Shown here: positions 57,501-64,000 of the stretch, piece by piece
How the letters are laid out: each line of letters begins with the position of its first letter
Position numbering within the stretch: the stretch's first letter is position 1
DNA from: Escherichia coli
Lineage (GTDB): Bacteria > Pseudomonadota > Gammaproteobacteria > Enterobacterales > Enterobacteriaceae
Strand: one strand, 5' to 3'
Assembly (NCBI RefSeq): GCF_036507355.1
Contig: NZ_AP027877.1
Length of the DNA stretch: 64,000 nt
Program-made: the position numbers and the translations under genes
Notes under the pieces: model-generated
The model's database searches: none
Seen by the model: only the letters and a program-made list of their open reading frames with translations
Told to the model about the DNA's origin: nothing

Positions 57501-58358
57501 TCAGCCTAAAACTGCCAGTTTTTCGAGCGTTTCGAAGCCGTAACGCTGTAAAACGGGCAATAATTGTTCAGCTTCTGGCGTCATTGCCATACAAAAGGCA
57601 ATATTCGCATCGGCAGATTTTGCATCCGGGGCTTCATGTTCTAACAACCAGGCCGTTCGGCGAGCAATCGCTGCGCCAGAATCCACCAGCCGGGTTCCCT
57701 CTGGCAGCACTTGTAACAGTTCTTCTTGTAGTAGAGGGAAATGGGTGCAACCCAATACAACGGTATCTGGCGGCTCTTTCATTCTTAACCACGGGCGTAG
57801 GATACGTTTTAGTGCATCCAGAGAAACATCTTCGCCATGCAGCTTCGCTTCAGCCAACTCAACCATCTCTGCCGAGCCCAGCATTTCTATCTGGCATTCA
57901 TTAGCGAAACGCGCGATCAGCTCATGAGTATAAGAACGTTTAACTGTTCCGCGGGTTGCCAGTAATCCGACAATGCCATTTGCCGTCAGACGTGCAGCAG
58001 GTTTAATCGCCGGCACGACACCAACAACCGGGAAGTCGAACTTTTCGCGTAATGCAGGAAGTGAAACGGTACTGGCGGTGTTGCAAGCGACCACAGCCAG
58101 CGCAAGGGGATAACGTTCTTGCACCGCGGTGACAATTGCCACCACTCGCTCAACAATAAACGCTTCGCTTTTTTCGCCATACGGGAAAGCGACGTTATCG
58201 AAAGCATAAATGTAATGGAGATCCGGTAAGAGATGCCGGATCTCGTCATAGACCGACAACCCACCGACGCCGGAGTCAAACACCAGCACGGTGGGACGTG
58301 GTTCAGAAGGTGTAGCTGCCAGACAAGGTGTATTTCCGTCCTGCAGTTTGGTAGCCAT
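57501..58358 (-). CDS. murI: Glutamate racemase (285 aa)
   Basis: ORF 57501..58370 contains [65 protein letters not shown]; start taken at MATKL, overlapping btuB 3' end by 56 bp. Confidence 0.93.
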
Positions 58359-60147
58359 AGACTGTCTCATAATCTTTGTCGAACAGGTTGGCTATTTTAC
58401 CACGAACTGTCAGATGAGAGGTGACCGGATACGCAACCGCAAGATCCCACAAGCTCACACCGCCCATTTTAACGGTTTGATAAGGATAAGATGAGTAATC
58501 CTTATCATAGCGAGTGCCTAAATACTGATAAGTAATACCCCAGTCGAAGTCATACAACTGCCAGTCGAGCTGGTATTTCACCTGCTGTTTAGCACGGCGT
58601 AACAACGGCGTGTCGGTAATCGCATTGCGCGCATCGACATAATCATAACTCACAGTATGCGTCAGTGGTCCGGTATCAAAATTGGCGGTCGCCTCGACGC
58701 CCTTAATCCGCGCTTTCCCTTCGTTGTAATATTTCAGGGTGTGATCATCATAATCGATCAAGTCACTGACATCGTTACGATATCCGGAAATACGCCAGTT
58801 CACCCCAGCGGTTAAGCCTTCAAACGCGCCTTCCCACTGTTTGCTTTTCTCCGGGTCCAGATTTGGATTTCCGTAGAAGCCATACAGTTGCCCCAGATTT
58901 GGTGCCTTATAAGATGTCCCGTAGGAAGCAATGAAGCGATAACCTTCGATGAATTCCCAACCGGCGCTGGTTTGCCAGGTTCCATGACGACCAAACTGTG
59001 AGTTATCGTCGCTGCGTGCTGCGCCTTCAAAGGTAAAATCGCCGACTTGTTGCAGCCCGGTCAGATAGATGCCGGTATTACGTTGATCATATCCATCCTC
59101 AACATAACCTGTACCCGGCGTCGTAGTCTGTTTCTGCCAGTCGACACCCGCACCAATACTACCGTGACCAACGATGACATTGTTTGCCCACTGGACGGTG
59201 TATTGCTTCATCTCATCGAGCGTCGCCGACGAATCATAACGACCATAATGGGGATCGTAGTTGTAATCTTTGCTATGGCTATAGCTGGTAATGAGTTGTG
59301 ATTTAATCAGTTCGCCGTTATAGCGCAGCCCGGCGTCCCAACTTTGGCTATAGAGTTTACGGGTATCGACCAACGGTGAACCGGGAGAATAATACGCGTC
59401 ATAATTGGTACGGTTATCATAGCCATAGCCGCGCACAAAGCCGCTCCAGGCATCAGTAAAGTTATGCTCCAGCGCGCCATAAAGCGTTTTACTTAAAAAA
59501 CCATCGTTATCTGTCTGCGCTTGCGTTCCGGTATTACCATAGGCAACAACATCATAACCATGAGTATGGGCATAATCGCCCAACAACGTTACTCGTGTCT
59601 TATCACCCAGTTGTTGCTGTGTAGAGACATCATAGTTTTGATAACTATTGCTTCCCCACCCTGCTGAAATTTCCGTTCCGGGTTCATCGCGCGTCGTGAT
59701 GATATTCACCACCCCGCCTATTGCATCGGAACCATAAACGGCGGAGCGCGGCCCACGGATATATTCAACACGCTGGACAAGCGCAATCGGGAACTGGCTA
59801 AGGTCGGCAGAACCACTCACCCCCGCCAGATTCAGGCGTACGCCATCAATTAACACCAACACATGACTGGCATTTGTACCGCGAATAAAAATAGATGAGA
59901 GCTGACCTGAACCGCCGTTTTGGGTGATATCGACGCCCGGAAGACGGCGCAGCACATCATTAACCGAGGTCGACTGCCAGCGGTCGATATCCTGACGCGT
60001 CACAACGGTGGTTGGTGCAAGCACAGTGCTGCGCGGCTGTTCAAAACGGTTAGCAGTAACGACGAGAGTATCCGGGCTGGTATCCTGTGCCCAAGCGGAA
60101 AAGGCTGTGACAGAACACGCCGTCAGCAGCGAAGCTTTTTTAATCAT
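58303..60147 (-). CDS. btuB: TonB-dependent vitamin B12 outer-membrane transporter (614 aa)
   Basis: ORF 58303..60192 contains [58 protein letters not shown] (TonB box DTLVVTA) and C-terminal F; start taken at MIKKAS. Confidence 0.95.
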
Positions 60148-60149
60148 TG

Positions 60150-60390
60150 TAAAGCATCCACAATAGAAGAAGGATGCCGCAGGTTTCATCAATATTACGC
60201 GATGATGAGAACCAGATGCGACGTTGGCCGGCAGGTCTTCGGGCTTGGAGGGGTATCTAAGATACTAAGAGATGATGACTTCCCACCGAATGGCAGTGTC
60301 CGCATAACGCAATCATCGCACCTTTCCTTACCGCTGCGCGTCAGCTCCAGATTCGCACTGGATTCCCTATTAACTCACAGGACCGGCAAG
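60150..60390 (-). promoter_or_regulatory. Cobalamin (AdoCbl) riboswitch in btuB leader
   Basis: Minus-strand leader contains the B12-box AAGCCCGAAGACCTGCCGGCC and upstream GGTGCGATGATTGCGTTATGCGGACACTGCCATTCGGTGGGAAGTCATCATC elements ahead of the btuB start. Confidence 0.85.
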
Positions 60391-60515
60391 TGGATGCTAC
60401 AGGTTGTAACAAGTTACTGTCCAGACGTAGCTCACAAATAGGAATTCATCAAGATCTGGACATCTGATGAGCAATCCCTACAATCGCCGCGTACTTTAAT
60501 TTTTCAGGATACATC

Positions 60516-61616
60516 ATGACCCCCGAACACCTTCCAACAGAACAGTATGAAGCGCAGTTAGCCGAAAAAGTGGTACGTTTGCAAAGTATGATGGCACCGT
60601 TTTCTGACCTGGTTCCGGAAGTGTTTCGCTCGCCGGTCAGTCATTACCGGATGCGTGCGGAGTTCCGCATCTGGCACGATGGCGATGACCTGTATCACAT
60701 CATTTTCGATCAACAAACCAAAAGCCGTATCCGCGTGGATAGCTTCCCCGCCGCCAGTGAACTCATCAACCAGTTGATGACGGCGATGATTGCGGGTGTG
60801 CGTAATAATCCCGTTCTGCGCCACAAGTTGTTCCAGATTGATTACCTCACCACGCTGAGTAATCAGGCGGTGGTTTCCTTGCTGTACCATAAAAAGCTGG
60901 ATGATGAGTGGCGTCAGGAAGCGGAAGCCCTGCGCGATGCACTGCGAGCACAGAATCTGAATGTGCATCTGATTGGTCGGGCAACGAAAACCAAAATCGC
61001 GCTGGATCAAGATTACATCGACGAACGTCTGCCGGTCGCAGGGAAAGAGATGATCTACCGTCAGGTAGAAAACAGCTTTACCCAGCCGAACGCGGCGATG
61101 AATATTCAGATGCTGGAATGGGCGCTGGACGTAACCAAAGGCTCAAAAGGCGATTTACTGGAGCTGTACTGCGGCAACGGTAACTTCTCATTAGCCCTGG
61201 CGCGCAATTTTGATCGGGTATTAGCCACCGAAATCGCCAAGCCGTCAGTCGCTGCCGCGCAATACAATATTGCCGCTAACCATATTGATAACGTACAAAT
61301 TATTCGTATGGCGGCAGAAGAATTTACTCAGGCGATGAATGGCGTGCGCGAGTTTAACCGCCTGCAAGGGATCGACTTAAAGAGCTATCAGTGCGAAACC
61401 ATTTTTGTCGACCCGCCGCGCAGCGGTCTGGACAGTGAAACCGAGAAAATGGTGCAGGCGTATCCACGTATTCTGTATATCTCCTGCAATCCGGAAACGT
61501 TATGCAAGAATCTGGAAACATTAAGCCAGACGCACAAGGTCGAACGTCTGGCTCTGTTTGATCAGTTCCCCTACACGCACCATATGGAGTGCGGCGTATT
61601 ACTGACCGCGAAGTAA
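60516..61616 (+). CDS. trmA: tRNA (uracil54-C5)-methyltransferase (366 aa)
   Basis: ORF translation [88 protein letters not shown]... Confidence 0.95.
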
Positions 61617-61621
61617 AACCC

Positions 61622-61647
61622 ATGCCGGATGCGCCAGCATCCGGCAT
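61622..61647. terminator. 11-bp-stem hairpin between convergent trmA and yijD
   Basis: atgccggatgc-gcca-gcatccggcat perfect palindrome; lacks a strong T-run on either side, so terminator function is uncertain. Confidence 0.45.
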
Positions 61648-61655
61648 GATACCGA

Positions 61656-62015
61656 TTACTCAGCAACTTCCTGCTTACGGTTACGCATCTTCGCGCCAAT
61701 CCAGAACACCATAATGACGGAGAGTACTGCCGGGAAGAAGTTAGAGCCGATATCCGGATATTCCGCACGAACTACCGTGCTGTACAGCAGTACGCCGAGA
61801 ATAAAACAGGCAGCTGCCAGACCCGGCAAGCCTACCGGCATGGTGCGATTAAGATAACGTTGATGCAGGCAGTAAACCGTCAGCACCAGGGAAATAATCG
61901 GGAATACAGAAAATGGCACAATGGAGCTAAACAGCGCTGCGAAAGTACCATTAATCGATAAGCCAGCAACCAACGCCAGCAGCAGCGTACCTCTATCTTG
62001 ATTTGCTTGTTTCAT
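61656..62015 (-). CDS. yijD: Inner-membrane protein YijD (119 aa)
   Basis: ORF translation [119 protein letters not shown]; ATG shares one nucleotide with fabR stop. Confidence 0.9.
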
Positions 62016-62662
62016 TACTCGTCCTTCACATTTCCCGGAATAATTGCGGTTTTCTCTTGTTCACGGCGATACCAGTAATAAGCCCCTTTCGAAATCATTC
62101 GCAGTTGCAGTACCAGTCGCTCTTCTAATTGCCGACGTTGTTCGACGCCGACGTCCAACGCCTCGGCACCCGCACTGAAGACAATTGTCACCATTGCTTC
62201 GGCTTGCGCTTCAGTAAACGCACGCGGCATATGGTTTTCGAGTTCCAGATAGTCCGCAAGTTCCGCAATGAAGTGCTGAATTTCACGCGCAACGGCGGCA
62301 CGAAACGCAGCGGAGGTGCCGGAGCGTTCCCGCAATAATAACCGGAAGGCGTTAGGATTATTACCGATGAACTCCATAAATGTGGAGACCGAGGTGCGGA
62401 TCACACTCCCGCCTTTGGCGATACGCTGACGCGCCTGGCGCATGAGTTGGCGTAGCATTAAACCGCTCTCATCAACCATGGTCAGACCCAGTTCGTCTAC
62501 GTCGCGGAAATGCCGATAAAAAGAGGTGGGAGCAATGCCCGCTTCACGCGCCACTTCACGCAAACTCAGGCTGGCGAAGCTGCGTTCAGCACTTAATTGG
62601 CTAAATGCGGCTTCCACCAGCGAACGGCGGGTTTTTTCTTTTTGTTGCGCTCTTACGCCCAT
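62015..62662 (-). CDS. fabR: TetR-family repressor of unsaturated fatty-acid biosynthesis (215 aa)
   Basis: ORF 62015..62758 contains [68 protein letters not shown]; start taken at MGVRAQ (reverse-complement ATG at 62660-62662). Confidence 0.9.
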
Positions 62663-62768
62663 CACGATGTCTGAATCCTTGCCAAAAGTACTGCTGGCAC
62701 TATACCAGAGAATGAACATACTGGATTGCTCCAGTATTGTGAATGAACGGTAACGCAATAAAACATAT

Positions 62769-64000
62769 TTACTGCAATTCTTTGGCCGGTTCTTTTACGT
62801 ACAACAACGCCAACATCGACAGCAACGTGCCTCCACCCAGATACCACGCCGGAGCCGTCAAACTATCCAGCAACACGATGGATTGCGTAGCGAAATATTG
62901 AGCAAAACCGCCAAAGATTGCCACACCAATGCTATAAACCAGCGCAAAACCCAATGCCCGAATCCGTTTCGGCAACAGTTCAGAGATCAACAACATCACT
63001 GGCACACCGCCAAGCGTGGTAAAGCTGACCATCACGAAAACCACCGTCAGCAACATGCCAGGGCTTGGGTAATTCACCAACAGCCAGAATGACGGCCAGC
63101 TACAGATCAGCACCATCACACGGGAGATTAAAATCAGCTTTTTACGCCCGACCGAATCGCACAACATCCCCACAAGCAGCGCACCCACAAACGTAATAAC
63201 GCCCGCCAGTAACATCGCTGCATGAGAATAATGTTGAGGCATCGCCAGATACTTCGCCGCCCAGGTGCCGTAATAAAAGAGGGAGATATAGGTTGCGACC
63301 GTGCTACCAATAGCGAGTAAAACGCCATTAACGATAGTCGCCTTATGTTGCAGGAGCAGAGAAAACGCGCTTTCGCTGGTAGCAGCTTTTTTATTGCGCA
63401 CAGGCTCAGGTACGTCATTTTCCAGACTCAAACGCAACCAACAGCCGACAGGCGCTAATAACACGCCAATAAAAAACGGCACACGCCAGCCCCATTCAGC
63501 CATGACGGTTTCTGAACCGGTCGCAAAGGGCAGCCATGCACTTAAACCTAAAGCGACAACACCTCCAAAAGTTGTTGCCAGGCCTTGAGTCGCCAGTGAC
63601 CAACTGCTGTAAAAACCGCGACGATTTGCCGGAGCTGATTCAACCAACAAAGACATTGAGGCACCGACTTCGCCTCCTGCCGCAACGCCCTGAATTAGAC
63701 GCGCTAGCACCAGCGTCGCGGTTCCCCAATAGCCCGCCGTCGCATACGTCGGCGCAATGCCAATCATCAACGTGCCGAGGCTCATCAGGGCAATAGTGAA
63801 CACCATCGCGGGTTTGCGTCCGAAACGATCGGCCCAGGCCCCGACGATAATTCCACCAAGCGGGCGCATAAAAAAACTCACGCCAAACGTTGCAAATGCC
63901 AGTAACAGCGCGACATTGTGATCAGCGCTGGGTGGGAAGAAAAGCGTACTGATATAGACCACAAAAAAGTTGTAAACGCCAAAATCAAAAAATTCGAGCG
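62769..64000 (-). CDS. MFS transporter, metabolite:H+ symporter (MHS)-like, 5' end beyond window (more than 410 codons present)
   Basis: ORF 62769..63962 is open to the window edge (upstream reads ...[19 protein letters not shown]); contains ...[88 protein letters not shown]..., typical of KgtP/ShiA/ProP-type MFS proteins; multiple hydrophobic segments. Confidence 0.8.

Follow-up and report, generated by a model that had tools for sequence, protein, structure and literature searches.

Genes at the window edge and their arrangement in relatives

The stretch of Escherichia coli DNA analyzed here (the window, 64,000 nt) ends inside a gene for an MFS permease. Its final 6 kb contains, in order, btuB (minus strand), a cobalamin riboswitch, trmA (plus strand) and then yijD, fabR and the permease ORF (all minus strand); the features near the edge are listed in Table 1. 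An earlier note on this DNA had described an MFS transporter gene that lies on the minus strand, is co-directional with fabR and runs off the window, and the ORF list, the sequence and the Pfam matches confirmed this description. The TAA stop codon is at 62771-62769, the reading frame is open up to base 64000, and the 5' 85 nt of the gene lie beyond the window edge. In relatives the full-length permease has 438 aa (strain PE164, L001:9170-10486), and the window protein is 99.5% identical to it across residues 30-438. The 397-aa ORF that the earlier note had taken as the protein begins at an internal GTG, not at the true start of the permease.

Table 1. Features mapped at the permease end of the window
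Feature	Position	Strand	Basis or remark
MFS permease gene, 3' 1232 nt (codons 30-438 + stop)	62769..64000	-	ORF list and sequence, Pfam/NCBIfam matches
Last 11 codons + stop of permease gene, 35 bp	62769..62803	-	Unchanged in K-12; left edge of deletion
Permease-fabR spacer, 103 bp	62666..62768	-	Likely fabR promoter and 5' UTR
Sigma-70-like candidate promoter, TTCACA-17 nt-TATGTT	62715..62743	-	Consensus scan, 9/12 matches
fabR, 216-aa form, HTH-type repressor of unsaturated fatty acid synthesis	62015..62665	-	100% aa identity to FabR WP_001309117.1
yijD	61656..62015	-	1-base overlap with fabR stop; 100% identity to annotated YijD; downstream member of fabR-yijD unit

Pfam scores well above the cut-offs for MFS_1 (109.9 bits; cut-off, 33.4) and Sugar_tr (110.2 bits; cut-off, 22.3) place the permease in the MFS. 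Its top NCBIfam match was TIGR00883 (metabolite/H+ symporter; E = 1.8e-96, model positions 1-392 of 400), in agreement with the MHS type assigned to it earlier; the score was 323.7 bits against a curated cut-off of 443.45, and no NCBIfam subfamily or equivalog model was matched at its curated threshold. After this general family model, the best subfamily match was NF011656 TcuC (tricarballylate/proton symporter; 286 bits, E = 4e-85; cut-off, 445). Motif A of the MFS (G-x-x-x-D-R-x-G-R-K/R between TM2 and TM3, with a repeat in the second half) occurs at residue 82 of the full-length orthologue, and the second-half repeat, DSVGRK, occurs at residue 310. A crude hydropathy scan of this orthologue fits about 12 helices but is not decisive. 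Elsewhere the gene is called 'citrate-proton symporter' (PGAP) or 'MFS transporter' (Sakai ECs4893).

The permease gene lies directly upstream of fabR, as had been noted, but at a distance of 103 bp rather than 106 bp. The fabR ATG is at 62665, and the encoded protein matches the FabR that PGAP annotates in E. coli PE164, O157:H7 and K-12 with 100% identity. In E. albertii, an additional T interrupts the frame of the longer, 234-aa FabR annotated in K-12, within its putative N-terminal extension, which supports the 216-aa start. The spacer between the two genes is 100% identical among the window, K-12, O157 and PE164, and the identity between the window and K-12 continues for 35 bp past it, so that the same 138 bp stand upstream of the fabR ATG in both. 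The proximal ~80 bp are near-invariant across Escherichia species and more conserved than the adjacent synonymous sites (alignment A1). The sigma-70-like match (62743-62715) was the sole hit in the region; it is identical in K-12, is found at the same site in PE164 and falls in columns that are conserved across alignment A1. The proposal that the fabR promoter had been compressed into about 100 bp is thus contradicted: the fabR-proximal upstream region is equal with or without the permease gene, and fabR would keep its own promoter within the unchanged spacer.

We found no canonical terminator between the permease gene and fabR; hairpins in the spacer were weak and without a U-run (fold z-score, -2.4), and an Rfam scan of positions 58000-64000 returned the btuB cobalamin riboswitch only, with no match in the spacer. 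The lack of a canonical terminator in the spacer makes read-through from the upstream operon into fabR possible, as far as can be predicted from the nucleotide sequence.

The window ends before the genes that adjoin the permease gene on its 5' side, and the closest relatives, at 98.3-99.6% identity, were used to infer their arrangement. PE164, O157:H7 and an APEC O2:K1:H5 strain all show the order fabR (minus strand), permease (minus), M20 aminoacylase (minus) and sthA (plus). In PE164, the best match, fabR is followed by genes annotated as a 'citrate-proton symporter' (438 aa) and an 'M20 aminoacylase family protein' (388 aa) and then by divergent sthA, oxyR and argH. In strains with this two-gene cassette sthA remains divergent, 2.96 kb further on. 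The gap between the M20 stop codon and the permease start is 43 nt long, contains an AAGGAA ribosome-binding site and lacks a terminator, indicating that the two genes form an operon; the region upstream of the amidohydrolase gene is AT-rich (32% GC). The genome that the window comes from is predicted to continue past base 64000 with the missing 85 nt of the permease gene, the 43-nt gap, a 1167-nt M20D gene and an AT-rich spacer of about 329 bp that leads to sthA on the plus strand. The gene at the window edge is the distal member of this two-gene operon, in which a gene for an M20D amidohydrolase precedes that for the MFS permease.

Deletion of the gene pair in K-12 and distribution in Escherichia

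In K-12, fabR is preceded by the divergent sthA, as the earlier note had stated; the sthA ATG and the ATG of the 216-aa fabR are 330 bp apart. The minus strand of the K-12 locus reads ttactgcaattctttggccggttcttttacgtaca, which is identical to window positions 62769-62803, and then continues into unrelated DNA. Beyond this 35-bp remnant lies a 73-bp filler that is found nowhere in the cassette, and homology resumes ~119 bp upstream of the sthA ATG. The tail encoded by the 35 bp is VKEPAKELQ; its Budviciaceae counterpart, FKDPKNLED, has the same length and shares the K-[DE]-P core. Since the tail is homologous in Budviciaceae orthologues from unrelated contexts, it is an original part of the gene rather than the product of an insertion. 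K-12 therefore holds a native remnant of the permease gene, and its locus is a deletion, i.e., the derived state. The direction of change is the reverse of that proposed in the earlier note, which had read the transporter gene here as strain-specific content or a rearrangement. A single old deletion of about 2.7 kb removed both genes and left 35 bp of the permease gene plus the 73-bp filler. At this locus the reference strain K-12 represents the derived state and carries a 35-bp permease fossil.

The origin of the filler was considered separately. In no allele did it align with the AT-rich sequence that precedes the M20 gene. At 19-20 of 23 positions, the first 23 nt of the filler agree with M20 codons 117-124 in inverted orientation; the shuffle p-value for this match was only 0.003-0.02.

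Among 5426 complete E. coli genomes, 1505-1507 (~28%) carry the gene pair; a megablast search with positions 62600-64000 recovered the whole of this segment from 1507. Full-length matches to a 171-bp probe that spans the K-12-type junction were obtained in 3918 genomes (~72%). These two classes account for 5425 of the 5426 genomes, indicating that the locus is biallelic with a single deletion junction. The transporter gene is thus missing in K-12 and varies in presence among E. coli strains, as had been proposed. Labelled examples among the matches listed were O157:H7, O55:H7, O2:K1 and O2:K2 strains and CFT073 for presence of the cassette, and K-12, TG1, O104:H4 and O121 for its absence. The deletion allele is now that of ~72% of sequenced E. 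coli, including K-12, and the window represents the undeleted allele.

In E. albertii, E. whittamii and three further divergent lineages (Escherichia sp. E1V33, MOD1-EC7003 and E. coli E69) the pair likewise lies between sthA and fabR. The 90% protein clusters of both proteins include entries labelled E. fergusonii, E. ruysiae and Shigella dysenteriae/boydii, and the 90% cluster of FabR contains only Escherichia and Shigella plus one Rouxiella. Outside these genera, an M20-permease pair with 68-79% aa identity is also present in Leminorella, Pragia, Budvicia, Enterobacillus and one Enterobacteriaceae MAG. The neighbourhoods of these pairs differ from that in Escherichia and vary among themselves, and the maintenance of the pair in such varied surroundings identifies it as a functional unit. 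Some related pairs are disrupted, with a split permease gene in Budvicia and a truncated M20 gene in Limnobaculum. From a sequence comparison that covered Escherichia lineages and Budviciaceae orthologues, we conclude that the amidohydrolase-permease arrangement between sthA and fabR is ancestral in the genus Escherichia. The idea of strain-specific content or a rearrangement does not fit a pair that is present in ~28% of E. coli and in the same slot across the genus, with sthA still divergent. The earlier note had named a core gene or a known conserved neighbour of fabR as findings that would speak against its reading; the latter holds genus-wide, but the former does not, since the gene is missing from 72% of sequenced E. 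coli.

Both genes are under strong purifying selection. The dN/dS ratio of the permease gene was 0.011-0.054 among Escherichia alleles (0.014-0.059 for the window permease against eight alleles) and that of the M20 gene was 0.015-0.075, with dS reaching 0.67; both ORFs were intact in all eight Escherichia alleles examined. The window allele showed 93-94% DNA identity to the O157 and B2 alleles, and the difference was almost wholly synonymous. The dN of the partial permease gene in the window was 0.014 against the O157 allele and 0.004 against the B2 allele, and the full-length PE164 permease was 97.3% and 99.5% identical in amino acid sequence to those of O157 and B2, respectively. The window allele was 98.3% identical to that of the nearest complete genome, and the wider 22.7-kb background was 99.5% identical at best, indicating that the source strain is absent from the complete-genome collection.

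The synonymous divergence of the cassette within E. coli was high (dS of 0.26-0.46 for the permease gene and 0.11-0.16 for the M20 gene, versus 0.009-0.07 for sthA and 0.007-0.08 for fabR). It was also patchy: some 200-bp blocks differed by 10-17%, and one M20 block of a B2 strain was identical to that of E. albertii. The patchy, high dS and the E. albertii-identical block point to allele exchange among Escherichia lineages.

Proposed function and alternative explanations

In the relatives, the partner enzyme scored 359 bits against TIGR01891 (cut-off, 153.75), which places it in the M20D amidohydrolase subfamily, and Pfam assignments PF01546 and PF07687 were precomputed for the M20 orthologues. 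It scored below every equivalog cut-off (e.g., CpsA, 336 vs 500 bits; DoeB2, 322 vs 550), so the sequence does not place it with HipO or any other named equivalog. The motifs HACGHD (residue 98), QPAEE (131), GMHN (159) and VHNP (360) align with those of 1ysj, 1xmb, 6slf and 4ewt; we take the Cys and His of HACGHD, the Glu of PAEE and two further His to be the metal-binding and catalytic residues, by analogy with published structures. A search for homologues of the M20 enzyme was filled by near-identical E. coli entries with automated names only. The names 'citrate symporter' and 'hippuricase' are likewise automated labels that the curated thresholds do not support.

We agree with the earlier note that the substrate of the transporter cannot be read from the sequence. 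In what we infer about substrate class, transport direction and regulation, the permease would import an anionic amide-linked carboxylate through proton symport, most likely an N-acyl-L-amino acid and possibly a dipeptide-like compound. The metal-dependent M20D enzyme would then split the amide bond in the cytoplasm, yielding an amino acid and an acid that the cell could use as nutrients. In ordinary culture the operon would probably be silent, with its expression driven from the AT-rich sequence that precedes the amidohydrolase gene. We are highly confident of the identity and history of the gene pair and give the uptake-and-hydrolysis mechanism about an even chance; a single judgement over identity, history and mechanism makes this explanation, as a whole, a likely one. 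Distant homologues of the permease have neighbourhoods that give themes, not a substrate: those in Pseudomonas (37-38% identity) adjoin an Amidase-family gene, an OprD porin gene and a LysR regulator gene, and the neighbourhood of a Cupriavidus homologue includes urocanase.

This history has to be weighed against acquisition, in which the pair would be strain-specific accessory DNA that entered the sthA-fabR interval of some E. coli lineages by horizontal transfer. The absence of the pair from K-12 and from 72% of complete genomes would fit such an event, as would the fact that the nearest orthologues outside Escherichia are in Budviciaceae and not in close relatives such as Salmonella; the mosaic and unusually high synonymous divergence of the cassette in E. 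coli also means that imported segments exist. However, the K-12 junction retains a permease tail that is native to the gene family, the same slot is occupied in every other Escherichia lineage examined, and one deletion junction is shared by all 3918 genomes. The usual marks of an island are also missing. The GC content of the two genes (50-56%) is like that of the flanks, no integrase, transposase or tRNA gene is annotated between fabR and sthA in the PE164, O157:H7 and APEC loci, no repeats were seen flanking the pair in the PE164 locus, and no plasmid-borne relative of the permease exceeded 46% aa identity. We consider acquisition within E. coli extremely unlikely; the pair may have been acquired at the base of the genus instead. 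Nor is it credible, except at the very margin, that the genes are decaying remnants without a current function whose loss K-12 has completed. Loss from 72% of genomes, the disrupted pairs of Budvicia and Limnobaculum and an expression level that seems low unless TosR is overproduced would all be expected of decay, but the ORFs are intact in the eight Escherichia alleles, dN/dS is 0.01-0.075 at dS values up to 0.67, and the catalytic and MFS motifs are retained.

Two other explanations concern function. If the permease were a true citrate or tricarballylate:H+ symporter that acts independently of the amidohydrolase, its PGAP name, the listing of c4924-c4926 under 'citrate metabolism' (PMC2831201) and the rank of TcuC as the best NCBIfam subfamily match would be accounted for. 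The TcuC score, however, is far below its cut-off, so that the sequence does not qualify as a CitA/TcuC-type transporter, and no plasmid-encoded transporter is more than 46% identical to the permease. The permease gene is always paired with the M20D gene, both in Escherichia and in the 68-79% identical orthologues of another family, and it has no adjacent citrate-catabolic genes. O157:H7 and B2 E. coli are, moreover, citrate-negative aerobically. A citrate symporter is accordingly very unlikely. Unlikely as well, but to a lesser degree, is a role in glutathione or gamma-glutamyl/dipeptide salvage with the M20D enzyme as a dipeptidase, e.g., for Cys-Gly. The Budviciaceae pair lies near a gamma-glutamyltranspeptidase (GGT) gene (by Pfam at one locus, L009, and inferred from 578-579-aa ORFs at L010 and L015) and near an OPT-family oligopeptide transporter gene (confirmed at L014 and inferred from similar ORFs at L010 and L015), and among the structural relatives SAPEP (4ewt) is recorded as an M20 peptidase. 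Yet these GGT and OPT neighbours are on other strands or separated from the pair by other genes, GGT is absent from the neighbourhood in Pragia and Budvicia and such neighbours are absent in Enterobacillus and Escherichia, and the linkage may stem from the common descent of a few related genera. MHS-type permeases, for their part, mostly carry organic anions or osmolytes.

A more far-reaching form of the uptake-and-hydrolysis proposal is unlikely but can be outlined. The operon would be a normally silenced, genus-old scavenging system whose substrate, an N-acyl amino acid of host origin, might for example be hippurate or phenylacetylglutamine in urine or the gut; its retention in O157 and B2 and its loss in K-12-type lineages would contribute to niche differences, its induction could raise FabR and YijD through read-through, as no terminator lies between the operon and fabR, and the patchy dS would record repeated inter-species allele exchange at a selected locus. 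If this were true, read-through would link nutrient scavenging to membrane-lipid control.

Earlier records of the locus and comparison with known systems

The feature itself is ordinary: it is a presence/absence polymorphism that is already annotated in thousands of genomes, and the genes have been listed before as absent from K-12 (PMC2831201; PMC2241611). Sakai ECs4892/ECs4893 and CFT073 c4924-c4926 are orthologues of the pair in the same sthA-fabR slot. A synteny study from 2010 recorded c4924-c4926 as a cluster absent from K-12, filed it under 'citrate metabolism' and scored it as present in the B2 strains F11, 536, UTI89 and E2348 and as negative in O157 (PMC2831201). The negative score conflicts with the genomes searched here, in which O157:H7 carries the pair; the likely cause is that the rule of that study demanded all three ORFs, and the scores for O42 and SMS-3-5 in its table are unreliable.

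With regard to expression, c4924 of CFT073, a 'putative hippuricase', ranked with the genes that responded most strongly when TosR was overexpressed (up by log2FC 6.6), and a TosR site was predicted 78 bp upstream of it (PMC5956150); we placed this predicted site in the 32%-GC spacer (L001:11766-11794). ECs4893 was up 2.09-fold at a growth transition (PMC2241611). Our literature search found no biochemical, genetic or functional study of these genes, and the pair is one of many conserved E. coli operons that are missing from K-12.

A parallel in K-12 is abgABT, judged by analogy. This system combines an M20-family p-aminobenzoyl-glutamate hydrolase of two subunits with a dedicated importer of the AbgT family and is controlled by a LysR regulator. 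As proposed for the present pair, a permease imports an amide-linked acid that an M20-family metallo-amidohydrolase cleaves in the cytoplasm, and the PDB entry 3io1, an 'aminobenzoyl-glutamate utilization protein', matches the M20 enzyme (E = 1.7e-35). Unlike abg, however, the present locus combines a single M20D gene with an MFS permease gene, and no regulator gene adjoins them.

The enzyme also matches characterised M20D aminoacylases, namely YxeP of B. subtilis (1ysj), ILL2 of Arabidopsis (1xmb), the Corynebacterium N-alpha-acyl-glutamine aminoacylase AgaA (6slf) and SAPEP of S. aureus (4ewt), to which it aligns over its full length (E values of 1e-64 to 1e-71) with the HACGHD, QPAEE, GMHN and HNP motifs kept; it has no equivalog-level match, however, and their substrates are not transferable to it. 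For the C. jejuni hippuricase HipO, also in this group, the link is the automated name 'hippuricase'. The permease, in turn, resembles the MHS carboxylate:H+ symporters (TC 2.A.1.6: TcuC, CitA/CitH, KgtP, ShiA and ProP) in its whole-length matches, which were weaker for ProP and ShiA, and in motif A. It differs from them in that its scores are below their cut-offs and in that it is fixed in an operon with an amidohydrolase gene.

Divergence of the cassette within E. coli

Cassette orthologues (the M20D amidohydrolase gene, M20, and the MFS permease gene) were compared between the E. coli PE164 locus (L001:9170-11696) and the Escherichia loci L003, L004, L006-L008, L011 and L012, together with window 62769-64000. 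Within E. coli, dS was 0.26-0.46 for the permease gene and 0.11-0.16 for M20, whereas the values for the flanking genes were far lower (sthA, 0.009-0.07; fabR, 0.007-0.08). The divergence was mosaic; some 200-bp blocks differed by 10-17%, and one M20 block of a B2 strain was identical to that of E. albertii. This high and mosaic divergence relative to the flanks suggests inter-lineage recombination in the cassette.

The K-12 junction, FabR start and insertions

No clear source was found for the filler that occupies the junction of the K-12 deletion. Over its first 23 nt, 19-20 positions agreed with codons 117-124 of M20, the gene lost from K-12, but the segment is inverted relative to that gene (shuffle p of 0.003-0.02); it may be a relic of a complex deletion event.

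The K-12 FabR record with the additional N-terminal stretch is NP_418398.3 (234 aa). Alignment of the fabR upstream region (A1) revealed that E. albertii carries an extra T within that stretch (window 62666-62719), which breaks the 234-aa frame; the conserved FabR start is thus that of the 216-aa form, at window 62665.

The K-12-type fabR-sthA intergenic region of E. coli IAL7254 is interrupted by a transposase gene of the IS481 family. The end of this gene is separated from the sthA start codon by 18 bp, and the sthA promoter has therefore probably been displaced. Separately, the insert in Escherichia sp. MOD1-EC7003 was not present in the seven other alleles, and it resembles the consensus of an ERIC/IRU intergenic repeat.

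Features of the Escherichia and Budviciaceae loci
Feature	Coordinates	Remarks
Filler DNA, K-12	L002:2911-2983	73 bp; sthA-fabR intergenic region
IS481-family transposase gene, IAL7254	L005:2822-3913	
Region with insert, MOD1-EC7003	L011:4334-4786	insert of 124 bp, directly upstream of M20
Permease, Budvicia aquatica	L016:6001-9988	split by ~2.6-kb insert
M20, Limnobaculum allomyrinae	L015:5494-5907	only residues 250-387 left
Gamma-glutamyltranspeptidase gene	L009:1919-3655	Pfam confirmed
Gamma-glutamyltranspeptidase gene	L010:1275-3014; L015:3493-5229	from similar ORFs
OPT-family oligopeptide transporter gene	L014:7660-9843	Pfam confirmed
OPT-family oligopeptide transporter gene	L010:8154-10238; L015:8723-10864	from similar ORFs
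Cobalamin riboswitch RF00174	window 60213-60402 (-)	87 bits; btuB leader

Orthologous pair and known elements

The orthologous M20-permease pair is decaying in some Budviciaceae. Gamma-glutamyltranspeptidase and OPT-family transporter genes near the pair in this family may hint that it serves peptide or gamma-glutamyl metabolism. The cobalamin riboswitch of the btuB leader is a known element at its expected location.
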